A stretch of DNA of 64,000 nucleotides from Escherichia coli (GCF_041248615.1 NZ_CP158426.1), one strand, 5' to 3'. Positions 7,011-25,189 are shown, counted from the first letter of the stretch. The notes: generated from the letters alone by a model not told the origin. Program-made: numbers and translations.

Positions 7011-7110
7011 ACTGCCGAATGCAGCGCGAACGCTTTATCCGGCATAAATTTTAATAGATGATGATCACCGATAAACTTACGCATCGGGGATGTTTACATA
7101 GGTTTCAGAA

Positions 7111-7386: not shown

Positions 7387-7532
7387 ATTACGGCTCCAGA
7401 GTTGTTATCACACTATCACCCACCGACATTATTGGGTTGATTAATAATTAGTTCAGTCAGGGCATAAACGCCAGTAACCGGAAATAAGACACTTTGTGAT
7501 CTCTCTCGCACCCGATTATTTTTGGTAGAAAT

Positions 7533-8204: not shown

Positions 8205-8220
8205 GCAGATAATTTACTCT

Positions 8221-8466
8221 CTACGTAATCAACCTGATTTGCCGAATCCCGACCATCGGCGATGATAGCCCCCGTAATGCGTGGTCCTTATTTCCGATAA
8301 GTTTACTTGAGTCTTTAGCTTCCCATTTCAGCCCACTCTCCCCTGTGTGGGCTTTTTTCATTGCTCTGACCCGTCCTGAATAGCCAAACAATGGCAATGT
8401 TTCACTTTGCAGGGATGATAATAAGGGGATCTGATTCAGAAGAGTTATGAAAAGTTGGACCGCCAT
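8221..8466 (-). CDS. yahM: small hypothetical protein
   Basis: ORF 8221-8496; internal ATG at 8466 gives 81 aa; position between yahN and yahL; weak coding evidence. Confidence 0.4.
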   Translation of the reverse strand: MAVQLFITLLNQIPLLSSLQSETLPLFGYSGRVRAMKKAHTGESGLKWEAKDSSKLIGNKDHALRGLSSPMVGIRQIRLIT

Positions 8467-8878
8467 CGAGGCCTCGAACCCCGTACCATACAACAATCCT
8501 GGTTGTCGTCTGCTCTTCCTGATGAGCTAATGGCGGTTTTTGATATGAGCCTTACAGCATATTTTCTGTCAGGCTTGAGTGCGATGCGTAAGATACAGAA
8601 AAGACCCCACACAAACATGATGGAATTATGATTTTTTTCATATGAATGTCAACCCACACATTCACAAAACATCTGCATGAGATCATTTTTTATACACCGT
8701 ATAGCTGCGAAACCACTGCTGATGCTTTTTTAAGCGAAGCGTCGCCGATCACAACAAAATATCGGCGAAAAAGGCGGTGGAATGCCATTTGGCATACGGA
8801 TATACAGATGAAATGATTACCTGCTTTGCGATTCACTCTCTGGTGGAATAACAACTCGCAGGTGGAACCCTTTCTGAA

Positions 8879-9694
8879 CTAAAGAGTGTAGCGGATTTTA
8901 ACGTGCTTATTTACAGGATAATATCTGTCACCTAATTCCTGGACTCTATTAGATATCCATTGATTTAATCGCGCATCATCTCTGTATGTTTTTACGTCCA
9001 GAACAGAGAGCAATAACATCACCAGTGATTCAGGAAAAACAGGGTAGATATTTTTTAAGTGTAATAATAATCCATGCGCAAGCGCCTGCTTAATGGGTGC
9101 GTCGGTCTCCGGAATAGACGACATTTCGCGAAGCCATTTTTCCACATGCATACACTCTTTCCCTTTAGGGAAAAGTCTCAGCAAAGGCATATGGTGTTCA
9201 AGAAGAATACATTTGCAATCTGTTCGCACTGAATCGATAAACTGCACTAATTTCTTAAGCCCGGTAAAGCGTCCAGCCTGCACGTTTGCTTTAATATCAA
9301 GAAACGCATCGTCCTGGTCATATACCCAAACTGTCCCTTTTTGATTTTCAAGTATGCGAAAAACAAACTTAACCGGGTGATCAGGGTAATCCATCCAGTC
9401 ATAAAATCCAGGGAAATCATTAAACTGCACATTTATAGTGAGTGCGTTATCGTCTGACCACTCACAGTCTCGTACAGCAGCCATGAGATGAATGAGTTTG
9501 TCGTCATCGACTAAATCATCACGACAATCATAAGGATAATCATAATATTGTTTAATCAAAACCTTGAATATATCGACACAGGAGACCAGGGAGCTTTTGA
9601 TATCCTCTGGTAACTGATTGTTTTTTACTGTATTAAGTATGCTTTGTTGCGTATATGGCATCAAATTATTGTGCGGAGCTTTTAATGATATCAT
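8879..9694 (-). CDS. yahL: hypothetical protein
   Basis: 271-aa ORF in conserved position. Confidence 0.7.
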   Translation of the reverse strand: MISLKAPHNNLMPYTQQSILNTVKNNQLPEDIKSSLVSCVDIFKVLIKQYYDYPYDCRDDLVDDDKLIHLMAAVRDCEWSDDNALTINVQFNDFPGFYDWMDYPDHPVKFVFRILENQKGTVWVYDQDDAFLDIKANVQAGRFTGLKKLVQFIDSVRTDCKCILLEHHMPLLRLFPKGKECMHVEKWLREMSSIPETDAPIKQALAHGLLLHLKNIYPVFPESLVMLLLSVLDVKTYRDDARLNQWISNRVQELGDRYYPVNKHVKIRYTL

Positions 9695-9861
9695 CGCGAT
9701 CTCTCTTAAATAAAAATAAACGTCGCAGATAATAAAGCCCTGATTAAACCAGGCACTATCAGAAATCGCTCATAACTAACGTGTGAAGTATTGTGTACTG
9801 GAGGGAGTTAATTTAACAATTTGAATTTACGTTATAGGTTTTACTGCTACTTTGATATTAT

Positions 9862-9899
9862 TTCGCTCTCCTTAACTAAAAAGTTAAGTGGAGAGCGAA
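9862..9899. terminator. strong hairpin immediately downstream of yahK stop (candidate terminator or RNA stabiliser)
   Basis: TTCGCTCTCCTTAACT-AAAA-AGTTAAGTGGAGAGCGAA: 16 bp stem with 2-nt bulge; no clear U-tract on either strand. Confidence 0.35.
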
Positions 9900-9936
9900 G
9901 TTAATATGTTAAACCACAGGGTATTTATTAATTTTT

Positions 9937-10986
9937 TCAGTCTGTTAGTGTGCGATTATCGATAACAAAACGATATTTCACATCACCACGCAGCATTCGC
10001 TCATAGGCTTCATTAATTTGATCGGCCCGAATCATCTCTATATCAGCCACGATGCCATGTTCGGCGCAAAAATCGAGCATCTCCTGAGTTTCTGGAATGC
10101 CGCCAATCATAGAACCGGCTATCGCACGGCGTTTCATGATCAGGTTGAAAACTTCCGGCGATTTATGCGGTGTCGCAGGCGCACCAACCAGCGTCATGGT
10201 GCCATCACGCTTCAGCAAGGTGGTAAAATCGTCGAGATTATGTGGCGCAGCTACTGTATTCAAAATGAAATCGAAACTCTTGAGATGAGCCGCCATCTCA
10301 TCGGCATTGCGTGAGTTAACAACTTCATCGGCCCCCAGGGCTTTTGCCGCTTCGCGTTTTGACTCAGAAGTGGTAAATGCCACCACATGCGCCCCCATCG
10401 CGTGGGCCAGCTTAATCCCCATATGTCCCAGACCGCCGATGCCGACCACGCCCACTTTTTTACCCGGCCCGGCCTGCCAGTGACGTAGCGGCGAATACGT
10501 GGTGATCCCTGCACACAACAAAGGAGCCACCGCCGCCAGCTGCTCTTGCGGGTGACGAATACGCAGAACATATCGCTCATGAACGACGATCTGTTGTGAG
10601 TAGCCGCCCAGAGTATGGCCCGGTTCGTCCGGCGTCGGCGAGTTATAGGTGCCGGTCATGTGATCACAGTAGTTTTCCAGCCCGTCTTCACACTCTTCGC
10701 AATGTTTACAACTGTCGACAATGCAGCCGACACCGACCAGATCGCCCGGCGCATGTTTTTCTACCTGATCACCAACGGCTACCACACGCCCCACAATTTC
10801 ATGACCCGGCACGCAGGGGTAAACCGTCCCCGCCCACTCGGAACGGACCTGGTGGAGATCGGAATGGCAAACGCCACAGTAAGCGATTTCAATTTTGACA
10901 TCATGCGGTCCCGGTTCACGCCGGGTGATATCCATCGATTCAAGTGGTTGTTTAGCGGAATATGCACCAACAGCTTTGATCTTCAT
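9937..10986 (-). CDS. yahK: Zn-dependent NADPH aldehyde reductase / alcohol dehydrogenase (MDR family)
   Basis: 349-aa ORF; zinc ADH motif GHEIVGRV; Rossmann GVVGIGGLGH. Confidence 0.88.
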   Translation of the reverse strand: MKIKAVGAYSAKQPLESMDITRREPGPHDVKIEIAYCGVCHSDLHQVRSEWAGTVYPCVPGHEIVGRVVAVGDQVEKHAPGDLVGVGCIVDSCKHCEECEDGLENYCDHMTGTYNSPTPDEPGHTLGGYSQQIVVHERYVLRIRHPQEQLAAVAPLLCAGITTYSPLRHWQAGPGKKVGVVGIGGLGHMGIKLAHAMGAHVVAFTTSESKREAAKALGADEVVNSRNADEMAAHLKSFDFILNTVAAPHNLDDFTTLLKRDGTMTLVGAPATPHKSPEVFNLIMKRRAIAGSMIGGIPETQEMLDFCAEHGIVADIEMIRADQINEAYERMLRGDVKYRFVIDNRTLTD

Positions 10987-11072
10987 TGTGTTTACTCCTG
11001 ATTAGCTATGTGTATTTGGCGATGCCTGATATGTCATCGCGGCAAAACGCGTCCATTGAATATAGCCAATAT

Positions 11073-12029
11073 TTAAACCACCCGATCCAGCCCCAACATG
11101 CCGCGAGCCTGAATGAAACAGAGCAGCAACGTTCCCCATAAGGCCATCGTCAGGTAGGGGCTTATACCGAGAATATTGAAGCCGCTTTCAATAATTTGCA
11201 GAAGAAACAGCGCCAGCACCATACCAATTATCCGCCCGCTGCCGCCGTCCGGATTAACCCCGCCGAGTACTGCCGCGAGGATTGACACCAGCAAGTACGA
11301 TTCGCCATAAGAGGCCTTAGCCGAGTTGAGTTTCGACATCATCAAAAATGCCGCTACCGCACAAAGCAAGGCGGAAATGACATACACCCAAATCAGCACC
11401 CGACGAGTGTTAATGCCGGAGTAAAGTGTTGCTCGTTCGTTAGAACCAATCAGATAAATGGATTTACCGAGCGGCGTTTTCTCCAGCAATATCCACAGCC
11501 CTAGCGACACTGCGGTAAACAACCACATCGGTAGCGGAATACCGAACCACTGTGCATGATTCAACCACAGCACCCATGAGGGATAATTGGCAATGGCGCT
11601 ACCGCCTGTCACCAGAATATTTACCCCTTTGAGCAACGTCATCATCCCAAGCGTTGCAAGAATTGGCGACACTCGAATACCAGCAATCAATACGCCGTTA
11701 CATAAACCGATTATCACCGCCGCGCCAGCGCCCGCCAGCAGCGTAGCGACAACCGTAGCAATACCCGGTGGATACTGAGTCGCCACCCACGCCATCACCA
11801 GTGAACAGGCGTTAGCAGTGGCTATAATTGACAAGTTAATGCCACCGCAAAGCATGGTCACCGCCATAGCCAACGCCAGAATGCCCAGCACGGGCATTTG
11901 CGAAGCGACGGACTGGAAATTACTTATCGACCAGAAAATCTCCGGCATAGTAATGCTGAAGGCTGCAACAGTTAGCACCAGCAGGCCGATCAAGTAAAAC
12001 TCAACGTTGTTACGCCACGATTTTTTCAT
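11073..12029 (-). CDS. ABC transporter permease (CUT2 sugar-type)
   Basis: ORF 11073-12059; internal start MKKSWRNN at 12029 forms ATGA overlap with stop of upstream permease; polytopic membrane protein. Confidence 0.8.
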   Translation of the reverse strand: MKKSWRNNVEFYLIGLLVLTVAAFSITMPEIFWSISNFQSVASQMPVLGILALAMAVTMLCGGINLSIIATANACSLVMAWVATQYPPGIATVVATLLAGAGAAVIIGLCNGVLIAGIRVSPILATLGMMTLLKGVNILVTGGSAIANYPSWVLWLNHAQWFGIPLPMWLFTAVSLGLWILLEKTPLGKSIYLIGSNERATLYSGINTRRVLIWVYVISALLCAVAAFLMMSKLNSAKASYGESYLLVSILAAVLGGVNPDGGSGRIIGMVLALFLLQIIESGFNILGISPYLTMALWGTLLLCFIQARGMLGLDRVV

Positions 12030-12997
12030 AGCAGACTCCGGTTCTGATGCTGACTCCACGCCGTGGCACTAATGCTGGCAACGATGATGATGCCGGTGAT
12101 CAATGTTTGCCAGTAAGACGAGACTCCCAATAAATTTAGCCCGTTTTGCATCACTGCCAACAACACCACGCCGAGCAAAGTACCGGTTAACGTGCCGCGC
12201 CCGCCGAGCAAACTAGTGCCGCCAAGCACCACCGCAGCCAGTACTGTCAGCTCATAACCCAGAAGAGAATCGGGGGCGACAGTCATCACCGTCCACGACT
12301 GCACTACACCCGCAGCACCAGACATCAATCCCATATAGCCGTAGACGAAAAGTTGCAGTTTCAGCACGCTAAAGCCGATGCGACTGGCTGATTCGCGGTT
12401 CCCGCCAAGGGCATAAATTTTGCGCCCTACACTGGTGAAATTCATGATAAACGCTGTTAGCAGCACCACCGTAATCATGGCGATCAGCGGCAGACCAAGG
12501 CCATAGTCATAGCCATCAGCATCGGTGTACTTGAACAACATAACCCCCTGCTCAAACCACGGCGGAAAGTCGTACAGCCACACACCTTTACTCAACCATA
12601 ACAGCAGGCCATAGAAAATATTCAGCGTCGAGATAGTGATGATGATAGACGGCACCCGTAGGCGATTAACCAGTAAGGCGTTTATTAAGCCAAGTAAAAT
12701 GCCGATGCCGCCCGCCAGGGCAAACGCGACAGCAAAGTTGCCACCAATTTTTTGCAGCAACAGCACCATGCCGTATTGCGCAATGATGGTCATTGCCGGA
12801 AACGAAATATCAATCCCACCGGAAATTAACACCACAAACAAACCACAGGCGAGAATAGTCAACATGGCATAGTTATTGGCGAGATCGTACAAATTACCGA
12901 ATGTCAGAAACTCGTCGCTGCGCCAGGCAAGGCCAACAAACAGCACCACAATCAGTAATGCCAGCCAGAATTCATGGCGTTTTTTCAGTTCAGCCAT
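12026..12997 (-). CDS. ABC transporter permease (CUT2 sugar-type)
   Basis: 323-aa membrane ORF; start overlaps ATPase stop by 8 nt. Confidence 0.8.
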   Translation of the reverse strand: MAELKKRHEFWLALLIVVLFVGLAWRSDEFLTFGNLYDLANNYAMLTILACGLFVVLISGGIDISFPAMTIIAQYGMVLLLQKIGGNFAVAFALAGGIGILLGLINALLVNRLRVPSIIITISTLNIFYGLLLWLSKGVWLYDFPPWFEQGVMLFKYTDADGYDYGLGLPLIAMITVVLLTAFIMNFTSVGRKIYALGGNRESASRIGFSVLKLQLFVYGYMGLMSGAAGVVQSWTVMTVAPDSLLGYELTVLAAVVLGGTSLLGGRGTLTGTLLGVVLLAVMQNGLNLLGVSSYWQTLITGIIIVASISATAWSQHQNRSLL

Positions 12998-14489
12998 TTA
13001 CCACCTCCGCAATCCTGGCCTGAGAACTGCTGTCAGGCAGGAAGCTATGGGTGATCTGACCTTTTTGCATTACCAAAATCCGGTGGCTTTGATACCACGC
13101 TTCTTCAATTTCATCGCAGATCATCAATACCGCAATGCCATGAGCCGCCAGATCGCTGATAATGCCGTATATTCCTGCTTTGTTGGCGATATCAACACCG
13201 ACAGTCGGGCTATCGAGAATCAACAGTCGTGGCCCAATCGCCAGCCATTTGGCGATCGATACTCGCTGCGCGTTACCCCCGGAAAGCGTATTCACCGGGA
13301 GATGTGGGTCAGAGACTTTGATGGTCAATGCCTTGATTAGCCTGTCCACCAGGTCACGCACTTTAGCTTCACTCAGAAAGCCGAAGCGATCTTTTACCTT
13401 GTGAAAAACAGTGCTAATGATGTTGTCTTCAATAGATTGCGCCATCACCAAACCGCGCGACATGCGATCTTCCGAAACATAACCAATACCGTGGCGGATG
13501 GCGTCCTGGTTACTATGCAGTGTAACCGGCTGACCGTTGATGAGGATCTCACCAGCATCCGGTCGGGTCATACCAAACAGACTCAGACATAATTCCGTGC
13601 GCCCCGCACCAAGCAGGCCAACAATCGACACCACTTCGCCCGCTTCCACCCGCAAGTTAATATTTTGATATTCCCCATGACGACTTAAATTACGCACCTC
13701 CAGCACCGGGGGGCTGGATTTTCCCTGCCACAACTCTCGTACCTGATATTCGAACTCCTGGCCGGTCATCAGAAAACTGAGTTGTTTTGTGGTCATCTCT
13801 GCGGCCGGAAAGGTCCCGACCAGCTCACCATCTTTCAGCACTGAAATACGGTCGGAAACTTCCATCACTTCTTCCAGACGATGACTGACGAAGACCACGC
13901 AGATCCCGCGTTCCCGCAATTGATGCACCACCTGTAATAACCCTTGCACTTCCTGATGGGTCAGCGAAGCGGTTGGTTCATCCATCACGATCAACCGTGC
14001 GTCCTGCGCCAGTGCACGGCAAATTGCCACCAGCTGACAGCGGGCAATTGAAAGCTCAGAAACGAGCGTATCCAGTGGCAATGTGACGTTAATACTGGTC
14101 ATTGCCGCCTGCGCCACCTCACGCAGACGACGGCGGTTAACAAACAGACCGTGGTGATAGTGGTTCACGGCGATATTCTCCCAGACACTCAGGTTAGGAA
14201 ATAAAGAGAGGTCCTGATAAATCACCTGAATCCCCTGCGCCACCGAAGCGGCGGGTGTCAGCTTTGACCAGTTTTTCCCACCAAGCGTAATTTCCGCCCC
14301 CTCATCCGGGCGATAAACACCGGACATAATTTTAATCAACGTCGATTTACCACAGCCGTTTTGCCCGGCAAGGCAGTGCACCTCACCCGACATAAAGTCG
14401 AGAGAAACATCGCGCAGCGCTCGCGTGGCATGAAACGTTTTGTTGATATGACGAAGGGAAAGGAAGGTTTCCATAGCATCCCCTGGCAA
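12990..14489 (-). CDS. ABC transporter ATP-binding protein with two fused ABC domains
   Basis: 499 aa; Walker A GQNGCGKST and second P-loop GLLGAGRTE; signature LSGGNAQRV; alternative start METFLSL at 14474. Confidence 0.85.
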   Translation of the reverse strand: MPGDAMETFLSLRHINKTFHATRALRDVSLDFMSGEVHCLAGQNGCGKSTLIKIMSGVYRPDEGAEITLGGKNWSKLTPAASVAQGIQVIYQDLSLFPNLSVWENIAVNHYHHGLFVNRRRLREVAQAAMTSINVTLPLDTLVSELSIARCQLVAICRALAQDARLIVMDEPTASLTHQEVQGLLQVVHQLRERGICVVFVSHRLEEVMEVSDRISVLKDGELVGTFPAAEMTTKQLSFLMTGQEFEYQVRELWQGKSSPPVLEVRNLSRHGEYQNINLRVEAGEVVSIVGLLGAGRTELCLSLFGMTRPDAGEILINGQPVTLHSNQDAIRHGIGYVSEDRMSRGLVMAQSIEDNIISTVFHKVKDRFGFLSEAKVRDLVDRLIKALTIKVSDPHLPVNTLSGGNAQRVSIAKWLAIGPRLLILDSPTVGVDIANKAGIYGIISDLAAHGIAVLMICDEIEEAWYQSHRILVMQKGQITHSFLPDSSSQARIAEVVNG

Positions 14490-14522
14490 TAAGAATCGGG
14501 GCTTTCGCCCCGAAGAAATGGA

Positions 14523-15509
14523 TTAATAAAGTGAGTCGATATTGTCTTTGTTGACCAGTAATACCTTATGGAAACGGATAATTCGCTTATCCATATCTAC
14601 GTCGGCCTTACCGAGATTCTCCATTTCTAATCCAGGTTTGATCTCTTCACCCTTCAGCAACGTGCTGGCGACGGCCGCGAGTGCGTAACCTGCAGAGGCC
14701 GGATCGTAAGTAATCCCTTCGGTGATATCACCACTTTTAATCAGTGATGCCGCCTGTGAAGGGATCATCATGCCATAGACTGCGACTTTATTTTTCGCCC
14801 GTTTCTCTTTCACTGCACGTCCCGCGCCAATCGGACCGTTTGAACCAAAGGAGACAACCGCTTTCAAGTCAGGATAGGTTTTCATGAGGTCCAGTGTGGT
14901 ACGACGTGAGTCATCCACACTCTCGGCAACCGGCATGCGGCGGGTAACTTCATGCATATCCGGGTAATGCTCTTTCTGGTATTTCACCAGCAAGTCAGCC
15001 CATAAGTTATGCTGCGGCACGGTCAAACTACCCACGTAAATCACATAGCCGCCCTTGCCACCCATGCGTTTCGCCATATGCTCAACATATTCAGCGGCAA
15101 ATTTTTCGTTATCAATGATTTCGATATCCCAGTTAGCACTTGGCTGACCGGGGGATTCGTTGGTCAGAACCACAATTCCGGCATCTCGCGCTTTTTTGAA
15201 TACCGGTTCCAGCACGTTGGCATCGTTTGGCACAATTGTAATTGCATTAACCTTACGGGCGATTAAATCCTCAATAATTTTAACCTGTTGCGGAGCATCA
15301 GTACTTGAAGGCCCCACCTGTGACGCATTAACACCAAAGGCTTTACCCGCCTCAACCACACCTTCGCCCATGCGATTAAACCACGGCATACCATCGACTT
15401 TAGAGATATTCACCACGACTTTTTCCGCTGCCTGGAGCGGCGCAGAAATTAGCGCAGCGCCTAATAACAGCGAAGACACCATATTGATAACAAAACGTTT
15501 ATTCATCAT
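14523..15509 (-). CDS. periplasmic solute-binding protein, LsrB-like
   Basis: 328 aa with signal peptide (ending LQA-AEK); resembles recalled LsrB along its length including C-terminal KDNID motif. Confidence 0.75.
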   Translation of the reverse strand: MMNKRFVINMVSSLLLGAALISAPLQAAEKVVVNISKVDGMPWFNRMGEGVVEAGKAFGVNASQVGPSSTDAPQQVKIIEDLIARKVNAITIVPNDANVLEPVFKKARDAGIVVLTNESPGQPSANWDIEIIDNEKFAAEYVEHMAKRMGGKGGYVIYVGSLTVPQHNLWADLLVKYQKEHYPDMHEVTRRMPVAESVDDSRRTTLDLMKTYPDLKAVVSFGSNGPIGAGRAVKEKRAKNKVAVYGMMIPSQAASLIKSGDITEGITYDPASAGYALAAVASTLLKGEEIKPGLEMENLGKADVDMDKRIIRFHKVLLVNKDNIDSLY

Positions 15510-15759
15510 TTCAGCCTCATTGCAGGGTAGTCAGGAAGTGTTCGCCCAAATTAGCGCGCTGGAGAGAATAAGAATTTTCGAATATTTTTATGCAGAATAA
15601 ACAGCCCTATTTCAGGCAGCTATTAAAAATTTGGTTATAAATATGGACAAAACGGGCAGTAACAATAAGTGTGACAATCATCACGTAAAAAATAGCAAAA
15701 TAAACAAAATTAGCGATACTTTATGTTTGTGAGCTTATTTCGCGTAGAAAAATAGTTAT

Positions 15760-16170
15760 CTACACAACGTCAATAAGGGCATATTCTTCAAAGATAACGT
15801 CCATTTCGGGTGAATAGCATCCTTCTGCCTGGAAAAAACGACGGTGTTCATTACGCCAATATTCAAGACTGAGGTCACCTTCACCTTCCTTACGGGCAAG
15901 CTCCGCGGTGACATCAGAAAAGCGCAGTAAATGCAGGCCAATCACTCTGATAACACAGACAGGCTCACCACGGCTATTTTCTACAATCTTATACTCACCA
16001 ATCAGCGGAAATGCGTTGTCTTCAATACATCCCGCCAGCGAACCACAGGAAGCTGTTTTAACACCAGTCGCAATCAACGTTGCGAGGTGATCGGCCAACG
16101 CTGCTGAATCGCCAAAAGTACAAAAGGAAGCATGGGGATATTTTTGTGAGATTTTTTCTTTTATGGTCAT
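15760..16170 (-). CDS. ASCH-domain (PUA-like) protein
   Basis: ORF 15760-16200; likely start MTIKEK at 16170; GxKT motif (ATGVKTAS) typical of ASCH domains. Confidence 0.55.
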   Translation of the reverse strand: MTIKEKISQKYPHASFCTFGDSAALADHLATLIATGVKTASCGSLAGCIEDNAFPLIGEYKIVENSRGEPVCVIRVIGLHLLRFSDVTAELARKEGEGDLSLEYWRNEHRRFFQAEGCYSPEMDVIFEEYALIDVV

Positions 16171-16468
16171 GAGAATATTTTCGCGATTACGGAAAAACAA
16201 ATCACATCTTAATTACTGTTGATAACCATCAGCAAGAGTATCATTGGTTTTTCGATACTGAATCTTTTTTATCCGAAGCAGGTCACATTTATGGCCTGAT
16301 AAATACCTTTGTTAAAACTCACTTTTGTGTATTTCTCTCAAATAATCCCCTGGAAATTATGCCGGGAGATTATAAAGTTCAGGATCATTCATTAACAAAC
16401 CATTCCCGCCCCACTCCCTGGGGCTTAAATCTCTTACGATTCACCGTTGCAGACATATCAAATGCGCA

Positions 16469-17851
16469 TCAACCTGCCACACTCCCCCACACCAGTTGCC
16501 CTTTATGGAACGTCGCCGTTCTCGGCGAGATACGCGCCACCGCCTCGGCGGAACAGGAGGCGTCCACCAGCACAAAGCTGGCGTCATCCTGCGCTTTGGG
16601 CCAGACGCGCTCGCCTTTTTCGTTGAGCGGCAATACATCGCCAGTGGCTAAAAACAGCGAACGGGACAAATTCTGTTCGTTAGGACGAATATAGAGCTGC
16701 GCGTAGAGATTGGCTTTTTCCAGCATGTCGCCCAGGCCGTAAGGCGACCAGTGGTCGATAACGCTGTCGGTGCCGGTCATCACTTTTACGCCTTTGTCGT
16801 GCAGTTGTTTAAGCGGCATATGTAGCGTGCCAATCGGCACCGTCGAGGCGATAGAAATTTGCTGCGCCGCCATCCGGTGCGCCAGTTCATCTACCTGTTG
16901 CTCATTGAGCGTTGCCAGCGCAAAGGCGTGGCTGATGGTCAGCTTGCCCTTCAGTTGCGGCGTTTTCTCCACCGTTTCAACCATATAATTGATGGCTGCC
17001 ACGCCTGCCGGAGTGGTTTCGTGCAGGTGAATATCAACGCCTTTGTCGTAGTCCAGCGCAATCTGGAACATGGTGTCGAGGGATTTTTCCATCGCGCCAT
17101 CAACACTGGTCGGGTCCAGCCCGCCGACGTAATGCGCCCCCGCCTGCATCGCTTCGCGCATTAAGGGTTCTGATTTCGACAGCAGCAAACCGTGCTGCGG
17201 GAAGGCGACAATTTCACACTCGAAGCCCGCCTGACGTCGCGCCAGAACCGCCTGCAAATTTTGCAGATTTTTCAGGCCGGAAACCGGTTCGATATTGCAG
17301 TGGCTGCGGGCAATGGTGGTGCCTTTCGATTGCAATAAATCGATCAGTTTTTCCGCCCGCTCCTGAGTATACGGTTGCAGTTCCGGCAGCATTTTCTGCT
17401 CAAGCTTAATCATGTCCTGGATGGTGGTGCCTGCCGGACGATTGAGCGAGCGCCACGGCCCGCCGTAAAAGGTTTTGTCGAGATGAATATGCATGTCGCG
17501 GGTAGTGGGCAGCATCAGCTTACCGCCAGCGTCATAGTGCGGCAGCGTGGCGTCCGGATGCTGCTTGTTCTCGCGCAGGGCAACAATTTTGCCGTTCTGA
17601 ATCTCTACGGTCTGGTGCGCCGTGCGGGTCTGTACTGCCACACCGTTTTCGTAGTCAAAACCGGTTTCCAGCAGCACGTTGTCGAGATAGTAGTGCGGGT
17701 CAGTGATTTTCATGGTGTTATTCGCGTCGCAATGGATTGTGCCAGAGACTGCCGCATGGGCGAGCGGCACAGAGGTACCAAACAGCGCGGCGGCGGTGAC
17801 CATCTTACCGCTCTGGCTCAGAAACTCACGGCGGCTATTGTTTTCTTTCAT
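16469..17851 (-). CDS. yahJ: metal-dependent amidohydrolase/deaminase with twin-arginine signal peptide
   Basis: 460 aa; N-terminus MKENNSRREFLSQSG...AHA (Tat motif SRREFL); amidohydrolase-superfamily HxH-type sequence. Confidence 0.85.
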   Translation of the reverse strand: MKENNSRREFLSQSGKMVTAAALFGTSVPLAHAAVSGTIHCDANNTMKITDPHYYLDNVLLETGFDYENGVAVQTRTAHQTVEIQNGKIVALRENKQHPDATLPHYDAGGKLMLPTTRDMHIHLDKTFYGGPWRSLNRPAGTTIQDMIKLEQKMLPELQPYTQERAEKLIDLLQSKGTTIARSHCNIEPVSGLKNLQNLQAVLARRQAGFECEIVAFPQHGLLLSKSEPLMREAMQAGAHYVGGLDPTSVDGAMEKSLDTMFQIALDYDKGVDIHLHETTPAGVAAINYMVETVEKTPQLKGKLTISHAFALATLNEQQVDELAHRMAAQQISIASTVPIGTLHMPLKQLHDKGVKVMTGTDSVIDHWSPYGLGDMLEKANLYAQLYIRPNEQNLSRSLFLATGDVLPLNEKGERVWPKAQDDASFVLVDASCSAEAVARISPRTATFHKGQLVWGSVAG

Positions 17852-17860
17852 CTTACGTCC

Positions 17861-18811
17861 TTACGTTTTAATAATATGGGTGCCCGTTTCACCACGCAGC
17901 GCCGCAGGCAGGCATTCCGGCGTGGTGATAATCACTTCTTTACCGCCCTGCTCCAGGAACGTCAGGCTGGCGATGATTTTTGGCAACATGCTGCCGGGTG
18001 GGAAATGCCCTTCCTGCATATAGCGGGTCATGGTGGCAATATCCACCCGATCCAGCGCCTGCTGCTGCGGCTTGCCAAAGTGAATACACACTTTTTCCAC
18101 GCCCGTGGTGATCACCAGAATGTCGGCGTGAATTTCGCGAGCCAGTAGCGCGGTAGAGAGATCTTTGTCGATAACCGCGTCCACGCTTTGGTAATCCCCC
18201 GCTTCAGTACGCACTACCGGAATTCCACCGCCGCCCGCGCCAATCACCACAAAGCCTTGCTGGATCAGCGCCTTAATGGCAGGTGCTTCGACAATACGTT
18301 TCGGTTCCGGCGAGGCGACCACGCGGCGATAGCCCCGTCCGGCATCTTCAACAAAACGCCAGTCAGGATTTGCCTTTTGTAATTCGTCACGCTGGCTGTC
18401 ACTAAAGAATGCGCCGATGGGCTTGGTGGGATGAGCAAATCCCGGATCGTTTTTATCCACTTCCACCTGAGTCACCACGGTGACGGCTTTTTTCTCGCCG
18501 TGACGCGCCAGCCGGTTGTTCAGCGCCTGCTGGATCAGATAGCCAATGCCGCCTTGCGTATCCGCCACACAGTTCGCCAGCGGCGTTAAGGGCAGCCCTT
18601 CGCGCTCGTGGGCAATCTCCGCGCGGCGTAAATCCAGCCCGACCTGCGGCCCGTTGCCGTGGGTCAGCACAATGTCGTAATCGGAAGCCAGCATTTCCAG
18701 CACCGTATCGGCGACGGCCTTCACCGCCTCCGCCTGATGCTCAATCGACTGGCTGGCGTTATCTTTGATAATGCTGTTGCCACCAATGGCAACGACCACA
18801 AGCTCTTTCAT
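17861..18811 (-). CDS. yahI: carbamate kinase-like protein
   Basis: ORF 17861-18985; conserved start MKELVVVAIGGNS at 18811 gives 316 aa; amino-acid kinase fold motifs. Confidence 0.85.
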   Translation of the reverse strand: MKELVVVAIGGNSIIKDNASQSIEHQAEAVKAVADTVLEMLASDYDIVLTHGNGPQVGLDLRRAEIAHEREGLPLTPLANCVADTQGGIGYLIQQALNNRLARHGEKKAVTVVTQVEVDKNDPGFAHPTKPIGAFFSDSQRDELQKANPDWRFVEDAGRGYRRVVASPEPKRIVEAPAIKALIQQGFVVIGAGGGGIPVVRTEAGDYQSVDAVIDKDLSTALLAREIHADILVITTGVEKVCIHFGKPQQQALDRVDIATMTRYMQEGHFPPGSMLPKIIASLTFLEQGGKEVIITTPECLPAALRGETGTHIIKT

Positions 18812-18905
18812 GTTGTTATGTCCGCTACAGAGGGTGATGGGGTTATGAGAGTGAGGTTGCCCCTCTCCCCAGAAGGGAGAAGGGATCGTAAGGTGCGTTT
18901 GCAGG

Positions 18906-20324
18906 TCAGACGCCGTAACGTTCGCACCAGCCGAGAATGGCTTTCTCGAAGCAGGCGAATGGTGGATGCACAATGCCCGCACCAATCATGCCGACGCCCG
19001 CATCTTTATGGGCGATGGCGGTGTTGATCACCGGCAGAATGCCGCTGCTGCCCACGCGGGTGATGTCGATTGCCGACGGCACGCCCATAAAACCGAGCAG
19101 CGGAATGGTGACGTTGGGGTTTTCACCGAGAGTGATTTCACGCATCTGGCGGGAGAAATCGATAGCCTCTTCCACCGTACCGCCCACCAGCGCGACGATC
19201 GCGGGCGCGGTCGCCATGGCAAATCCGCCAATGCCGTAGGTTTCAGTGATGGCGCTGTCGCCGATATCCAGCCCCGAATCTTCCGGCTTATAACCGGCAA
19301 ACATCGGCCCGATCACCTGCTGCGCCGGACCGGTAAACCATTGCCCCGGTAATCCGCTGACCCGCAGGCCGAACTCGACGCCGTTACGCGCCATGGTGGT
19401 GACCACGGTGCTGTATTCGATGCCGTGCGCCGCATCCATCGCCGCTTTACACATCGCCATCCACGTCGGGCCGGAGAAGTAGTCGCTGCTGGCGACAAAC
19501 TCAAACACTTCGCGCTGTTGCTCGACGGAATAACCCGCCTGAATAATCCCCTGCGTCAGCGCCTGAATCAGCAACGTCGTCCCGGCGTTATTGCGGTTAT
19601 GGCATTCATCGCCCATATGCAGCGCCTGCGCCAGCATTAAGCGCAGATCGATTTCGCCGATAATTTTCATCGCGTCGCGCAGCATTGGCCCCTGCACATC
19701 GCGCATCCAGTTGAGGCGGTCAATCACGCTCTGGTCGTTAGCGCCCATACGCAAAATCTTCGCCATCTGCTCGCTCATATTGGTGTAAGCGATGTTGCCG
19801 TAGGTTTTGTTTTTTACGATGTGCATAAACATCGAGGCCGAGGTAACACCCGCCATCGAACCCACGCAGTCGTGCTCGTGGCACGGCGAGAAGGTGATCT
19901 CCCCGGAGGCCGCCAGTTCAGCCGCCTCATCGAGATCTTTCGCCAGCCCTTCGAACACCAGCGCTCCGGTGACCGCGCCTTTCATCGCGCCACACATTTT
20001 TTCCCAGGTGATCGGCGGTCCGGCGTGAAGAATGGTTTTCGGCGTCATACCCGGCACCACGTTAATCGCCTGATCAAAACCAATCAGCACCGGATGCGAC
20101 TGGATAATGCGCTCCAAAGCCTGCTGGTTAGCGGCGGCGATTTTGTCTGCCAGCGGCGAATCGGCAATGTTATCCAGCGCCTGCACCACCTGCATATTGC
20201 CCTGCCCCGGCGGCGTCCAGTCGAGTTGAGTCACTTCTACATGCTGCTTTTTCAGGTCATCGCTAAACATGGCGATGCCGACGTTAATAACGTTCAATGG
20301 TTGGCTAAACAGTGACTGGCTCAT
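18906..20324 (-). CDS. yahG: DUF1116 protein (YlbE paralog)
   Basis: 472-aa ORF; start shares one nt with yahF stop. Confidence 0.8.
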   Translation of the reverse strand: MSQSLFSQPLNVINVGIAMFSDDLKKQHVEVTQLDWTPPGQGNMQVVQALDNIADSPLADKIAAANQQALERIIQSHPVLIGFDQAINVVPGMTPKTILHAGPPITWEKMCGAMKGAVTGALVFEGLAKDLDEAAELAASGEITFSPCHEHDCVGSMAGVTSASMFMHIVKNKTYGNIAYTNMSEQMAKILRMGANDQSVIDRLNWMRDVQGPMLRDAMKIIGEIDLRLMLAQALHMGDECHNRNNAGTTLLIQALTQGIIQAGYSVEQQREVFEFVASSDYFSGPTWMAMCKAAMDAAHGIEYSTVVTTMARNGVEFGLRVSGLPGQWFTGPAQQVIGPMFAGYKPEDSGLDIGDSAITETYGIGGFAMATAPAIVALVGGTVEEAIDFSRQMREITLGENPNVTIPLLGFMGVPSAIDITRVGSSGILPVINTAIAHKDAGVGMIGAGIVHPPFACFEKAILGWCERYGV

Positions 20325-21871
20325 CAGGCTTCCTCCCCTTTGCAGATAAATTCACGCGCCAGCAATCCGGTATTGGTGCTGCTGCTGGCCAGAATCACTC
20401 CGGCATCAAGCAACATCTGGCTTTGTTGTTCTAACGATGGCGTATCAAGATCGGTACCCAGCACATAGGCGAGAATGATCAACTCACGTCCTTCGGCAGC
20501 GGCGATCGCTTTCGCCTCTTTGATCGCCTCGATGGTGGAACCGACCGGATCTTCATGCGATCCAAACCCGAGCACAAAATCCATCACGATCACCGCCACT
20601 TCTGGATCGCGCGCCTCTTCGATCAAGCGGCTGATACGGTTGGTGGGGTCAATCATTGGATGCGGCTTGCCGTTGGTGAAGTCGTCATCGCCAAAGTCGA
20701 GGAAGGTGTGTTTGATGCTGCGGTTGATATCTTGCAGGCGGAATTCAGGATCGGGCTGAATGTTGCTGTAGACATCGCCATGTTTTTCCATCACCGCGAA
20801 CATGGTTTCGTCACACAGCGTGCCGCCGCAGAACAGGCCACGAATGTATTTCTGCTGCGGTTGCAGACGCGCACGCACATCCGCAATCAACGGCTGGTTC
20901 AGGGTATGCAAGTCGAGATGTTCTTGTTTCACACCGGAGAGCATCACCGCTTTTAGTGCCGCCTCTTTGGTGCCGCGAGCAAACTGTAGCCCCTGCTCAT
21001 CCACTGGCGTTTCGCCACGACCGAGGAAGCAGACCACCACTGGCTTACGGCAGGCGCGTGCGCGTTCCAGCACTTTGCGGGCCACCGCAGGCGCTGGCGG
21101 TTTGGAGATAAGCACAATGATTTCAGTTTGCGGATCGTTTTCCAGCATCCCGATAGCGTCGAGCATCATCAGGCCGCCGATTTTCTCGCTCAGGTCGCGC
21201 CCGCCGGTGCCAATCAGTTGCGAAACGCCGCCGCCAAATTCATGAATGCGGACGCTCAGTTCCTGGCTACCGGTGCCGGATGCGCCAACAATACCGATGT
21301 TGCCACGACGCACGGCGTTACCAAAGCAGAGCGCCGCGCCGTTGATAATCGCCGTACCGCAGTCTGGCCCCATCATCAGCAGCCCTTTTTCGTGGGCCAA
21401 CTGTTTGAGCGCCAGTTCATCTTCAACTGAGACGTTATCGGAAAACAGCATCACGTTAAGATCGTTTTGCAGCGCCTGACGCGCTTCGCGAGCGGCAAAC
21501 AGACCGTTGACCGAAATCACCGCCAGGTTACTTTCCGGGATATGCTTTTTGGCGCTGGCAATAGTGGCATAGCGTGCTTCATGTGAACCAGTTTGAGCTT
21601 TGGTGTTGAACAGTTCTTCAATCTCCACCAGCAACTGCTCGTTGTCTGCGCCCGCTTTGCCGTTGATGACAATCATCAGGTCGCCGTTTTTCGCCTGCTC
21701 CAGTTCCGGCGTCAGCAGCCCTAAATTCTTCAGCACGCCTTTGTTCATTTCGGTCGCCATCGCCACAAATGCCTGCTCGACGCCGTCGAGTTTATTTGCA
21801 CGCGTGGAGATAGACATCAGCGAGACAGAATCAAAATAGGTATTCGGTTTAATGACTATTTTAACTGACAT
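20324..21871 (-). CDS. yahF: FdrA-like protein (succinyl-CoA synthetase alpha / CoA-binding fold)
   Basis: 515-aa ORF; glycine-rich CoA-binding-like segments; overlaps yahE by 11 nt. Confidence 0.8.
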   Translation of the reverse strand: MSVKIVIKPNTYFDSVSLMSISTRANKLDGVEQAFVAMATEMNKGVLKNLGLLTPELEQAKNGDLMIVINGKAGADNEQLLVEIEELFNTKAQTGSHEARYATIASAKKHIPESNLAVISVNGLFAAREARQALQNDLNVMLFSDNVSVEDELALKQLAHEKGLLMMGPDCGTAIINGAALCFGNAVRRGNIGIVGASGTGSQELSVRIHEFGGGVSQLIGTGGRDLSEKIGGLMMLDAIGMLENDPQTEIIVLISKPPAPAVARKVLERARACRKPVVVCFLGRGETPVDEQGLQFARGTKEAALKAVMLSGVKQEHLDLHTLNQPLIADVRARLQPQQKYIRGLFCGGTLCDETMFAVMEKHGDVYSNIQPDPEFRLQDINRSIKHTFLDFGDDDFTNGKPHPMIDPTNRISRLIEEARDPEVAVIVMDFVLGFGSHEDPVGSTIEAIKEAKAIAAAEGRELIILAYVLGTDLDTPSLEQQSQMLLDAGVILASSSTNTGLLAREFICKGEEA

Positions 21872-22724
21872 AATTCCCTCCGTAGGTTTGGCTCAGCGCA
21901 CAACCATCGGCCATGCCATACAGCATGTCGCAGCCGGAACTGGAGCCAATATGTTTAATTTTTTCTATTGCCTGAGTTGCGTTCCCAGGGACACCATAAA
22001 TAATGTTATGAATAAAACGATGAATATTTTCCCGGCAGCGTTGTTGTAATGCGGCTTCCAGCGTTATGGCACTTAATAACGTGGTATTATTTCTGCCGCG
22101 TTGCAGACCGAGATAAAATTCCTCTTTGTATTTTTCCGCCGGATGTCCGGAAATAAATAAAATAAGCGCCAGACCTGTTAAATAATCGTCGGCTGATGGC
22201 GTAAGGCCAATCCCTAAGCCCATCATACTGGCGACTGCTGAGGCGATATTTTGTTTATCGTTTACGGCCTGAATAACTGCCCGTCGTTTAATATGTAATT
22301 CTTTATTTAACGCCTGATAAAACGGATTATCGCCGCAATAATTAAACAGGGTTTCATTTTCCCCCAGGTGCTGATGAATAATGTCATGCCACTGTTGCCA
22401 GGCGATAAGGTGAAAATTCACAGCGGTCATTTGCAAGGTTGGGGACAGCCAACGCCGACAACGACTCATCTCTATATGAAGATGTTGACCAACCGTAATG
22501 CCTTGATCGTCAAACTGAACCTTATCACCATGCCGGAACAGACCATCAAAGTGAGTGAGTGCCAACCGACAACTGTTTGGCGCATTGTCGTACTCTTCAC
22601 AAAGCAGCGTCAGCAACTGCTGGCGGGCCGGAAGTGCGATATTTACCGCTCTGGCAAAGACCTGTTCAACCTGTCCTTGCCCCCGCTGCGCCAGAAAATC
22701 AGCATCCGCAGTTAGCGCCCACAC
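21861..22724 (-). CDS. yahE: DUF2877 protein (YlbF paralog)
   Basis: 287-aa ORF upstream of and overlapping yahF. Confidence 0.75.
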   Translation of the reverse strand: MWALTADADFLAQRGQGQVEQVFARAVNIALPARQQLLTLLCEEYDNAPNSCRLALTHFDGLFRHGDKVQFDDQGITVGQHLHIEMSRCRRWLSPTLQMTAVNFHLIAWQQWHDIIHQHLGENETLFNYCGDNPFYQALNKELHIKRRAVIQAVNDKQNIASAVASMMGLGIGLTPSADDYLTGLALILFISGHPAEKYKEEFYLGLQRGRNNTTLLSAITLEAALQQRCRENIHRFIHNIIYGVPGNATQAIEKIKHIGSSSGCDMLYGMADGCALSQTYGGNYVS

Positions 22725-22763
22725 ACACCGTCTTTCTGGTGTGTTGATAGCAAGCCTCCCGGT

Positions 22764-23369
22764 TTATGCACCTGCGGCAATCAGTAACTGTGCAATCTCT
22801 TCAAAGCCTCGTTCCCGCGCCAGTTCCAGCGGCGTTTTGCCATATTTATCCGTCATGTGCGGGCTGGCACCGTGTTCCAGCAATAACTGGACAATCGCCT
22901 GCTGTTTAATCCCGCCATCATTAAGCACAATTGCTTCCAGTAGCGGCGTCCAGCCAACATGGTTGGTCTGGTTAACGTTAATCTCCGTATGCGCCAAAAG
23001 CTCTTTTACAATACTTAAATGGCCTTTTTCACAGGCAGGCGTCAGGCCGACACCGCCAAAACGGGTGACGCAATTAAGATCGGGTTTAGCCGGTAAAATA
23101 ATCCGTAACAGGGTTAAATCGCCGGTCAGGCAGCTAATTAAAAAAGGATTTGAACATATTTGATCTTGCTTATTAATATCTGCTCCGGCATCAATTAATG
23201 CCTGAACGCAAGCATATTGCTGATATAAACTTGCCAGCGTAATTGCCGTTTTCCCCTGACGATCGCAGGTATTAATATCGACACCCAGCGCAAGGCATGT
23301 TTTTACTTTATCGATATCACCCTGTTGCGCAGCCAATAAATAGTCGGCAGGTAGATTTTTTATAGTCAT
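22764..23369 (-). CDS. yahD: ankyrin-repeat protein
   Basis: 201 aa; repeated motifs of the type GKTAITLASLYQQYACVQALIDAGADIN. Confidence 0.8.
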   Translation of the reverse strand: MTIKNLPADYLLAAQQGDIDKVKTCLALGVDINTCDRQGKTAITLASLYQQYACVQALIDAGADINKQDQICSNPFLISCLTGDLTLLRIILPAKPDLNCVTRFGGVGLTPACEKGHLSIVKELLAHTEINVNQTNHVGWTPLLEAIVLNDGGIKQQAIVQLLLEHGASPHMTDKYGKTPLELARERGFEEIAQLLIAAGA

Positions 23370-23626
23370 TCACATTCCCCTGATTTTTGTGGCTGTTTTC
23401 GATGAATTGAGAATAGCAACGATAATCTGATAAAAGAACCCGCTTAAATTTAATTCGCCGTATTTCGCCTTTTTGTTGAATGATGTTCAACAATCTTTTC
23501 GCAGTGTGCGGTAGTGCAATATTTGTTTCTTTGACCCGATACCCTTTCACTCAATCAGGTTTTATTTCTCTATAGTCTGCACATGTAAGAGTAGCTTTCG
23601 TCCATGTCTAACCAGAGGGGAACAAG

Positions 23627-24124
23627 ATGAACGGACTCACGGCAACGGGTGTCACCGTCGGTATTTGTGCAGGGCTTTGGCAGTTAGTGTCTTCACATGT
23701 CGGGCTCTCTCAGGGATGGGAATTATTAGGAACTATTGGCTTCGTCGCCTTTTGCAGTTTTTATGCCGCAGGCGGCGGTAAATCGGGGTTTATCAGAAGC
23801 CTGGCGGTTAATTATTCCGGGATGGTGTGGGCGTTTTTCGCCGCGCTGGCTGCCGGTTGGCTGGCCTCGGTGAGTGGATTGTCCACGTTCTGGGCGAGCG
23901 TGATTATGACTGTACCCTTCTCGGCGGTGGTGGTCTGGCAAGGACGTTTCGGTTTACTGTCTTTTATTCCCGGAGGCTTTCTCGGCATGACGCTATTTTT
24001 TGCCAGCGGGATGAACTGGACGGTGACATTACTGGGTTTTCTGGCGGGTAACTGCGTGGGGATAATTTCAGAATATGGCGGACAAAAATTAAGCGAAGCG
24101 ACGACTAAACGCGACGGGTATTAA
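23627..24124 (+). CDS. yahC: small inner-membrane protein
   Basis: 165-aa hydrophobic ORF. Confidence 0.7.
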   Translation: MNGLTATGVTVGICAGLWQLVSSHVGLSQGWELLGTIGFVAFCSFYAAGGGKSGFIRSLAVNYSGMVWAFFAALAAGWLASVSGLSTFWASVIMTVPFSAVVVWQGRFGLLSFIPGGFLGMTLFFASGMNWTVTLLGFLAGNCVGIISEYGGQKLSEATTKRDGY

Positions 24125-24215
24125 AAGTTATTCAAAAATGATTATCTATCTTTAACCGATACCTCTACAGTCATAGCTGGAGAAATTCATAGTAGATAAT
24201 GGCGGGAATGGTTTA

Positions 24216-25148
24216 ATGAACTCAATTTTTACCGAAGAGAATCTGTTGGCATTTACTACCGCTGCGCGTTTTGGCAGTTTCAGTAAAGCCGCAGAAGAGT
24301 TGGGTTTAACCACTTCCGCCATTAGCTACACCATCAAGCGAATGGAAACAGGGCTGGATGTGGTGCTGTTCACTCGCAGTACCCGCAGCATTGAGTTAAC
24401 GGAGTCCGGGCGTTATTTTTTCCGCAAAGCTACCGACCTGCTGAATGATTTTCACGCCATCAAACGCAGCATCGATACTATTTCGCAGGGTATAGAAGCA
24501 CGGGTGCGCATTTGTATTAACCAACTGCTTTATACGCCCAAACACACCGCACGCTTATTACAGGTACTGAAAAAGCAGTTTCCAACCTGCCAGATTACCG
24601 TGACGACCGAAGTGTATAACGGCGTCTGGGATGCGATTATTAATAATCAGGCGAATATTGCTATCGGCGCGCCCGACACACTGCTGGACGGCGGCGGCAT
24701 TGATTACACGGAGATTGGCGCAATTCGCTGGGCTTTTGCTATCGCCCCGGATCACCCATTAGCCTTTGTGCCGGAACCCATCGCCGAAAGCCAACTGCGT
24801 CTCTATCCTAATATCATGGTGGAGGACACCGCGCATACGATTAATAAAAAAGTGGGCTGGTTGCTGCATGGGCAGGAGTCGATTCTGGTGCCAGATTTCA
24901 ACACCAAATGTCAGTGCCAGATTTTAGGTGAAGGGATTGGTTTTTTGCCGGATTACATGGTCCGTGAGGCGATGGCGCAATCCCTGCTGGTTACCCGACA
25001 AATCCATAATCCGCGCCAGGATTCACGCATGTTACTCGCAACTCAGCATTCTGCTACGGGTCAGGTGACGCAGTGGATTAAAAAACAATTTTCGCCAAAT
25101 GGCATATTAACGGGGATCTATCAGGATTTACTGCATCGGGAGAATTAA
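24216..25148 (+). CDS. yahB: LysR-family transcriptional regulator
   Basis: 310 aa; N-terminal HTH (FSKAAEELGLTTSAISYTIKRME). Confidence 0.85.
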   Translation: MNSIFTEENLLAFTTAARFGSFSKAAEELGLTTSAISYTIKRMETGLDVVLFTRSTRSIELTESGRYFFRKATDLLNDFHAIKRSIDTISQGIEARVRICINQLLYTPKHTARLLQVLKKQFPTCQITVTTEVYNGVWDAIINNQANIAIGAPDTLLDGGGIDYTEIGAIRWAFAIAPDHPLAFVPEPIAESQLRLYPNIMVEDTAHTINKKVGWLLHGQESILVPDFNTKCQCQILGEGIGFLPDYMVREAMAQSLLVTRQIHNPRQDSRMLLATQHSATGQVTQWIKKQFSPNGILTGIYQDLLHREN

Positions 25149-25189
25149 TCGCTGCCAACCTCCCGATGCGCTGTGAATAGCGGTTTACA

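Follow-up and report, generated by a model that had tools for sequence, protein, structure and literature searches.

Twelve co-directional genes from yahD to yahK of Escherichia coli: a probable juxtaposition of four separate units

A 64,000-nucleotide stretch of Escherichia coli DNA (GCF_041248615.1, NZ_CP158426.1), referred to here as the window, carries on its minus strand a run of genes from yahD to yahK that combines the yahDEFGIJ genes, a gene for an ASCH-domain protein, a sugar importer and the aldehyde reductase gene yahK. A preliminary description of the sequence had read this run as one import-and-catabolism unit, possibly controlled by the LysR-type regulator YahB. The analysis reported here makes it very probable that the 12 genes are instead four adjoining units, each inherited and regulated on its own. 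These would be the conserved operon yahDEFGIJ with the divergent yahC-yahB pair; a lone ASCH gene of the YhfF type that has a promoter-like site to itself; the importer operon aauABCD, under its own AraC-dependent promoter and delivering its substrate to AraB rather than to the Yah enzymes; and yahK, encoding a broad-range NADPH aldehyde reductase and preceded by its own conserved upstream region. Three lines of evidence speak against the single unit, namely the published separate aau promoter, the restriction of the arrangement to Escherichia and the independent deletion of its parts.

Results

Organization of the gene run

With genes placed by open reading frame (ORF) listing and RefSeq annotation, the minus-strand span 9937-23369, which lies in the equivalent of the K-12 betT-pdeL-yahB...yahO-prpR region in reversed orientation, holds 12 genes (Table 1). 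The preliminary description gave thirteen, although its own list names 12; yahH is absent from this strain. All of the named genes are indeed co-directional, and the short gaps and overlaps ascribed to them are present within three blocks. In the yah block the spacing is 39 bp between yahD and yahE, overlaps of 11 and 1 bp at yahE/yahF and yahF/yahG, 94 bp between yahG and yahI, and 9 bp between yahI and yahJ. In the aau block 48 bp separate the binding-protein and ATPase genes, the next two junctions overlap by 8 and 4 bp, and the last permease gene lies 86 bp from yahK. The description fails at the flanks of the ASCH gene, where gaps of 298 bp to yahJ and 253 bp to the binding-protein gene were found. 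Thus, of the features expected of a single operon, the common strand is present but uniformly short gaps without an internal promoter are not. The G+C content is also a mosaic, with 55-61% in yahF-J, 41% in the ASCH region, 49-54% in aau and 40% in yahL. When positions 7000-26000 were scanned against Rfam (E ≤ 1), the long gaps yielded no riboswitch, leader or small RNA.

The importer is the arabinose-regulated AauABCD

The importer encoded in the run, which comprises a binding protein, an ATPase and two permeases, is the already known AauABCD. The binding protein is identical to AauA (PDB 9I1M, chain A) at 325 of 327 residues, and Pfam and NCBIfam matches reveal a CUT2-type four-gene layout of binding protein, fused tandem-ABC ATPase and two BPD_transp_2 permeases. 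AauABCD (Z0415-Z0419) was described in enterohaemorrhagic E. coli (EHEC) as an accessory L-arabinose uptake and D-ribulose ATP-binding cassette (ABC) importer (Cottam et al., Nat Commun 2024, 2025; PMC11127945, PMC12307932). A reporter carrying ~300 bp upstream of aauA was induced only by L-arabinose, and its activity was abolished in a ΔaraC strain (PMC11127945). AauA favours D-ribulose more than 200-fold over L-arabinose, and the sugar imported by Aau is phosphorylated by AraB (PMC12307932). These published data show that aau is controlled by AraC and not by YahB. A separate AraC- and L-arabinose-dependent promoter inside the run is the kind of independent promoter that the single-unit proposal does not accommodate, and it makes the importer a member of the ara regulon, not of a yah pathway.

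The 253-bp gap upstream of aauA contains, in order, TGCCCGTTTTGTCCATA (15658-15642), 4 nt, TAACCAAATTTTTAATA, 21 nt and the -10-like box TATTCT. This geometry of AraC-like tandem half-sites resembles that of the araBAD promoter, where araI1 and araI2 are followed by the -10 box. Similar sites of the form ...C-N7-TCCATA lie upstream of the aau orthologues of Yersinia and Atlantibacter. The closest relatives of AauA outside Escherichia (75-79% identity) belong to self-contained four-gene cassettes in Providencia, Atlantibacter and Yersinia, which occupy unrelated neighbourhoods containing neither ASCH nor yah genes. The Providencia cassette (locus L083, 7034-18934) has a cytosine-permease/amidohydrolase pair on one side and, on the other, a divergent araC with araB and araA after it, an arrangement that fits an old link between the aau transporter and the arabinose regulon.

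Compared with the EHEC AauABCD, the cassette has the same four-gene order and nothing in it differs. The presence pattern also fits, as the cassette occurs in 41% of complete E. coli genomes and is missing from K-12 and strain 83972. What is added here to the Aau papers is the presence of deletion remnants in genomes lacking aau and of the ASCH gene between yahJ and aauA; this gene is unmentioned in the searched portion of the text of those papers.

Deletion alleles of the ASCH-aau segment

Genomes lacking aau retain traces of it. Short-word BLASTN resolves the 376 bp between yahJ and yahK in K-12 into five pieces: window positions 16537-16408, 24 unmatched nt, positions 15807-15738, 63 diverged nt and positions 11144-10971. 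The 70-nt middle piece covers the final 48 nt of the ASCH gene and a further 22 nt, and the fifth piece consists of the terminal 72 nt of aauD and the leader of yahK. The peptide encoded by the aauD remnant, ALWGTLLLCFIQARG, aligns with residues invariant among AauD orthologues (the ALWGxLLLxFI motif). Because it encodes a family-conserved motif, the remnant is interpreted as true coding sequence left by deletion, and the proximity of yahJ and yahK in K-12 is explained by the deletion of aau and most of the ASCH gene.

Among 5426 complete E. coli genomes, the full ASCH-aau segment is present in 2211, while ~2800 (~52%), including K-12 and strain 83972, have only the 70-nt ASCH remnant. A third allele was found in Escherichia sp. 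E2593 (locus L094), in which an intact ASCH gene is directly followed by the aauD remnant of K-12 and then by yahK, with yahL and yahM absent. There are therefore three allelic states in Escherichia, the full segment, ASCH without aau (E2593), and both ASCH and aau deleted (K-12), and all of them keep yahD-J. The combination in E2593 of an intact ASCH gene with the shared aauD remnant indicates an order of events in which the deletion of aau preceded that of the 5' part of ASCH. The same aau deletion junction is common to different Escherichia lineages. A further deletion is seen in the type strain of E. albertii, NBRC 107761 (locus L005, 11243-11470), which has lost the ASCH gene, aau, yahL and all but the last codons of yahK, such that yahJ is followed by the last few yahK codons, a hairpin and the yahM/yahN region. 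The deletion lineages keep yahD-J at 92-99% protein identity. The retention of yahD-J in every one of them shows that the downstream genes are dispensable for the yah operon.

The conserved unit is yahB with yahDEFGIJ

A scan for YahG with one genome per species yielded 80 loci, which were compared by TBLASTN with all proteins of the window. The loci belong to Escherichia, Pseudocitrobacter, Kluyvera, Citrobacter, Klebsiella, Raoultella, Enterobacter, Leclercia, Lelliottia, Serratia, Buttiauxella, Atlantibacter, Providencia, Proteus, Zophobihabitans and Aeromonas. In every locus of sufficient length, yahB on one strand is followed by yahD-E-F-G-I-J on the other. Outside Escherichia, no ASCH gene, aau or yahK follows yahJ in the loci that extend past it; the gene 3' of yahJ varies among genera and is often convergent. 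The 12-gene neighbourhood is thus not conserved across taxa, only yahB and yahDEFGIJ staying together.

Related clusters extend beyond these genera. In Brevibacillus, genes for ankyrin, AllH, AllF, AllG, (permease) and carbamate kinase proteins follow the gene of a PucR-type regulator, an NCS1 permease is encoded as well and a CDA-fold deaminase substitutes for YahJ, and in Janthinobacterium the core is present without YahJ. Some E. coli genomes (for example GCA_002918075.1, locus L091) have a second cluster, with a LysR-type gene and ankyrin-AllH-AllF-AllG-permease-carbamate kinase genes, that lacks yahJ and adjoins the aerobactin (iuc) genes; the LysR-type gene is divergent there too. In two Pseudocitrobacter loci (L006, L007) YahF, YahG, YahI and YahJ are 96-99% identical to the E. 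coli proteins while YahD shares 73% and YahE 55-58%, a mosaic suggesting that part of the operon was recently exchanged between genera. The name "operon yahDEFGIJ" appears in one EHEC study.

A candidate YahB operator upstream of yahD

YahB, which contains the Pfam HTH_1 and LysR_substrate domains, is encoded divergently from yahD in all informative loci and shows 74-98% identity across genera. The preliminary description had called yahB the divergent gene; its orientation is indeed opposite to that of yahD-J everywhere, but in the window the directly divergent gene is yahC and yahB lies behind it. Alignment of ~260 bp 5' of yahD from 17 loci, from Escherichia to Aeromonas, identified three conserved blocks, TGCAC-N5-GCACA, GAAT.A..TTTAAGCGG and GTTGCTATTCT. 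A palindrome, ATTGTTGAA-N5-TTCAACAAT, is conserved in the 17 aligned regions and contains a T-N11-A dyad. It is located at 23472-23494 and is unique in the window, with 0 occurrences expected by chance. A conserved -10-like box, TATTCT, is found at 23415-23410, 41-46 nt 5' of the yahD ATG, and the candidate promoter has a poor -35 element, TTCTTT, 17 nt upstream of this box. This spacing puts the dyad near -80, the position expected in a promoter activated by a LysR-type protein, and the palindrome is a candidate YahB operator.

Because yahB is always divergent and the T-N11-A palindrome upstream of yahD is conserved, control of yahDEFGIJ by YahB is a well-supported prediction, and YahB probably controls yahC as well. 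Its proposed extension over aau and yahK, as parts of a single unit, finds no support. A literature search found no YahB target or binding data. Classical pairs of a LysR-type regulator and a divergent operon, such as CynR/cynTSX, share with yahB and yahD-J the divergently transcribed regulator gene and a T-N11-A dyad ~80 bp 5' of a -10 box with a poor -35 element. The Escherichia variant differs from these in that yahC is interposed, the regulator being the second gene of the divergent transcript.

Predicted chemistry of the Yah proteins

The yah core combines three transcarbamylase-type subunits (FdrA/AllF, AllG and AllH) with an adjacent catabolic carbamate kinase. Experiments have shown AllFGH to be the oxamic transcarbamylase, forming carbamoyl phosphate and oxamate from oxalurate and phosphate; its genes are co-transcribed with that of the carbamate kinase AllK (PMC11326118). 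No allantoin genes were found near the yah operon, and the true allFGHK operon is located elsewhere in the genome. YahEFG and YahI are paralogues of AllFGH and AllK, and YahEFG is accordingly not classed as the oxamic transcarbamylase itself. The allFGHK operon (fdrA-ylbE-ylbF-ybcF; PMC11326118, PMC9843812) has the same three families and carbamate kinase as yah. In contrast to allFGHK, the yah operon has the AllH-like gene ahead of the other subunit genes, carries the extra ankyrin gene yahD, ends with the twin-arginine (Tat) signal amidohydrolase gene yahJ, includes a purine-permease-like gene in most genera, is paired with the LysR-type YahB and lacks an allantoin-pathway context.

YahD heads the cluster in all loci, including those of Brevibacillus and Janthinobacterium. 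This ankyrin protein, which had been suggested to be of a regulatory type, is the invariant first member of an enzyme cluster and not an obvious regulator. From Escherichia to Aeromonas, YahJ retains a twin-arginine leader (SRREFLSQSGK...AYA), which makes a periplasmic site of action likely. By analogy with AllFGH, YahEFG would act on a different ureide and set free carbamoyl phosphate, from which YahI would generate ATP. Permeases and deaminases of nucleobase type in these clusters point to a nucleobase-like substrate. As envisaged for this unit, a nucleobase-like ureide would enter the cell, in species with YahJ after being deaminated in the periplasm, and be split with phosphate to yield carbamoyl phosphate, which YahI would convert to ATP, CO2 and NH3; YahB, bound to the palindrome ~80 bp upstream of the promoter with the weak -35 element, probably switches the operon on. 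A literature search on the function of yahD-J found no experimental data.

A wider proposal is more tentative and may well fail, namely that yahB/yahD-E-F-G-(permease)-I-J constitutes a widespread ATP-yielding pathway of Enterobacterales and Aeromonas, with its core also in Janthinobacterium and Brevibacillus. Tat-exported YahJ would deaminate a nucleobase-like compound outside the cytoplasm, a role taken in Brevibacillus by the CDA-fold deaminase. The product would be imported by a permease family for which Pfam and NCBIfam hold no model, and the AllFGH-like enzyme together with the ankyrin protein YahD would cleave it to carbamoyl phosphate, the source of ATP through YahI. In the Escherichia-Kluyvera-Raoultella group the permease would have been lost and the DUF1097 protein YahC, expressed from the region under presumed YahB control, would have taken over transport. 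If true, this would provide the first function for DUF1097.

YahC and a purine-permease-like gene are mutually exclusive

The last part of this proposal derives from the distribution of two membrane proteins. In 55 of 71 informative species loci, a gene for a ~515-amino-acid membrane protein is inserted between yahG and yahI (for example, locus L043, 11422-13002). The other 16 loci have yahC alone, and none of the 71 has both genes or neither. Among the yahC-bearing loci are those of Escherichia, Pseudocitrobacter, Kluyvera, C. amalonaticus, Klebsiella spallanzanii and Raoultella, in which yahC sits between yahB and yahD. The pattern suggests that YahC replaces the permease. Sequence searches of Pfam, NCBIfam and PDB gave no usable match for the ~515-amino-acid protein, and its label of "xanthine/AGZA permease" comes from source-database names only. 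The family (from locus L043; P0121-P0240) has more than 1000 homologues at 64-98% identity, including members from Bacillales and Betaproteobacteria. Remnants of the permease gene were sought in Escherichia yahG-yahI spacers and none was found, so loss versus original absence of the gene in Escherichia is judged from genus distribution only. In K-12 this spacer is occupied by an array of ~420 bp of repetitive extragenic palindromic (REP) sequence annotated as yahH (locus L002, 9745-10165).

The ASCH gene and yahK

A sigma-70-like sequence, TTGTTA-18-TATAAT, was picked up by consensus scan at 16369-16398, upstream of the ASCH gene, and ASCH homologues are solitary genes in Yersinia and Kosakonia. 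The gene is therefore best regarded as a putative stand-alone unit with its own promoter-like site. YahK, whose NADPH-dependent aldehyde reductase activity is already published, is 99% identical to the K-12 protein and has the same flanking position; no difference from K-12 YahK was found. In all of the alleles from which aau is deleted, ~158 bp upstream of yahK are nearly unchanged while the adjoining spacer has strongly diverged, and this retained region fits a promoter of its own for yahK. YahK protein was reported to increase 3.6-fold on exposure to vanillin, alongside other aldehyde reductases (PMC6561319).

The minus-strand run does not end at yahK, as had been proposed, but continues through yahL, a small hypothetical gene and yahM (RefSeq). 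These three genes occupy 8221-9694 at ~40% G+C; YahL had no Pfam match. Beyond them, just after prpR, is the sole Rfam match of the scan, a weak one at 7009-7044 to the REP-derived naRNA4 (E = 0.34, below the gathering score), which is probably an ordinary REP element.

Hairpins and termination

The strong hairpin with a 16-bp stem reported downstream of yahK is real and stable, but its role as the end of the run is less secure. In a 92-nt context the fold has an energy of -23.6 kcal/mol (z = -4.9), and 0 of 200 shuffled sequences were as stable. The hairpin is single-copy, occurs in 5079 of 5426 E. coli genomes, and is kept in E. albertii despite the deletion of yahK there. It has no U-tract, AAUAAUAUCAAAG standing directly 3' of it, and only 7 of its 16 pairs are G-C; for these two reasons it was passed over by the terminator consensus scan. 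That scan and its sigma-70 counterpart serve only as pointers, as neither gave an excess of sites over shuffled sequence (13 sigma-70 sites against 19.9 expected; 22 terminators against 18.6). The hairpins after yahJ, after aauA and in the yahG-yahI spacer are none of them significantly more stable than shuffled sequence; a hairpin with a U-rich tail, as found after aauA, is common downstream of binding-protein genes. After yahJ, the ASCH gene and aauD, only short hairpins or hairpins without a U-tract are present, with fold z values of -0.7 to -1.7.

Table 1. Features of the yahB-yahK region, in window coordinates
Feature	Position	Strand	Details
yahB, LysR-type regulator	24216-25148	+	Pfam HTH_1 and LysR_substrate
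yahC, DUF1097 membrane protein	23627-24124	+	Pfam DUF1097
Shared yahC/yahD control region	23370-23626	.	motifs, palindrome, -10-like box
yahD, ankyrin-repeat protein, first operon gene	22764-23369	-	Pfam Ank families
yahE, AllH-like (PF11392) subunit	21861-22724	-	Pfam AllH 2e-28; 25% identity to K-12 YlbF/AllH
yahF (annotated fdrA), FdrA/AllF-like	20324-21871	-	NCBIfam FdrA 491 bits; 39% identity to K-12 FdrA
yahG, AllG-like (PF06545)	18906-20324	-	Pfam AllG 2e-88; 45% identity to K-12 YlbE/AllG
yahG-yahI spacer	18812-18905	-	94 bp, G+C-rich hairpin
Hairpin in yahG-yahI spacer	~18860-18884		11 bp, G+C-rich
yahI, carbamate kinase	17861-18811	-	NCBIfam PRK12352 649 bits; 38% identity to YbcF/AllK
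yahJ, amidohydrolase, last operon gene	16469-17851	-	NCBIfam PRK06846 716 bits; weaker cytosine-deaminase models
Hairpin 3' of yahJ	16408-16424		local feature
ASCH-domain (YhfF-type) gene	15760-16170	-	Pfam ASCH
aau promoter region	15507-15759	-	AraC-like tandem half-sites 15642-15658 and 15621-15637; -10-like TATTCT 15594-15599
aauABCD	11073-15506	-	binding protein 14523-15506; ATPase 12990-14474; permeases 12026-12997 and 11073-12029
Hairpin 3' of aauA	14496-14513		G+C-rich, U-rich tail
yahK, NADPH-dependent aldehyde reductase	9937-10986	-	RefSeq, Zn-ADH domains
Hairpin 3' of yahK	9862-9899	-	10 bp, 2-nt bulge, 6 bp, UUUU loop

Discussion

The division of the gene run into four units has to be weighed against the view that all twelve genes form one operon or regulon, run by YahB and devoted to the import and catabolism of a single substrate. 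The co-directional genes, several of them overlapping or closely spaced, and the lack of a canonical terminator between the blocks would suit such an operon, and an importer beside enzymes is a common design. It is, however, contradicted by the published AraC-dependent aau promoter and by the handling of Aau sugars by AraB. The arrangement is moreover confined to Escherichia, aau, the ASCH gene or yahK have been deleted from genomes in which yahD-J stay in place, and the ancestral yah cluster has its own permease of a different type, so that a single operon is highly improbable. A milder alternative is that the units are unrelated but partially coupled through weak termination, with read-through from the yahD promoter or the ASCH promoter into aau and yahK, in which case the hairpin after yahK would mark a common 3' end. 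The hairpins after yahJ, the ASCH gene and aauD are all weak and the only statistically strong one follows yahK, as such coupling would predict; the yahK hairpin, however, itself lacks a U-tract, and Rho might end transcription within the long A+T-rich gaps (298 and 253 bp). The aau reporter was also silent without L-arabinose, although that assay is blind to read-through from upstream. Partial coupling is considered unlikely, if distinctly less so than a single operon. Four separate units remain the favoured reading. Within it, the gene identities, the match to AauA, the synteny, the deletions and the conserved motifs are shown by the sequence comparisons, and the regulation and substrate of aau and the activities of AllFGH and YahK by published work, while the Yah chemistry, YahB control and the promoter positions are predictions. 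Some points weigh against this reading. Scanning and folding found no canonical intrinsic terminator after yahJ, the ASCH gene or aauD, so some read-through across the unit borders is possible. The AraC half-site pattern is not above chance in the window, with 41 matches against 45 expected. A metabolic link of the Yah enzymes to yahK or to the ASCH protein is conceivable, and the split of 16 yahC loci versus 55 permease loci may reflect a single evolutionary event.

The history of the ASCH-aau segment admits a separate alternative, in which the segment is a recently acquired island (O-island 17) of B1/E-type strains and was not lost from A/B2-type strains. The Aau authors describe it as horizontally acquired and on an O-island, it is absent at the yah position outside Escherichia, and the aau cassette is found in varied contexts in other genera. 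Against recent gain, genomes lacking aau retain 70 nt from the 3' end of ASCH and the terminal 72 nt of aauD, the aauD piece codes for the ALWGxLLLxFI motif conserved in the family, and this same aauD piece is present in the separate lineage E2593 beside an intact ASCH gene. A recent island is accordingly judged rather improbable. From the distribution of these alleles, aau is better read as ancestral in Escherichia and subsequently lost in K-12 and B2 lineages than as an island gained by EHEC, and it is possible that an early Escherichia ancestor acquired it.

Reading the run as a single unit would attach the virulence-associated Aau importer, along with a general aldehyde reductase, to an enzyme operon unrelated to them, an annotation error that separation of the units prevents. 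The gene run as such is unremarkable or already accounted for; the part that merits further work is the uncharacterised yah core. The yah operon is a well-delimited and highly conserved target within the y-ome, and the hunt for its substrate is made tractable by a candidate regulator site, a predicted periplasmic first enzyme and, in most genera, a dedicated permease.

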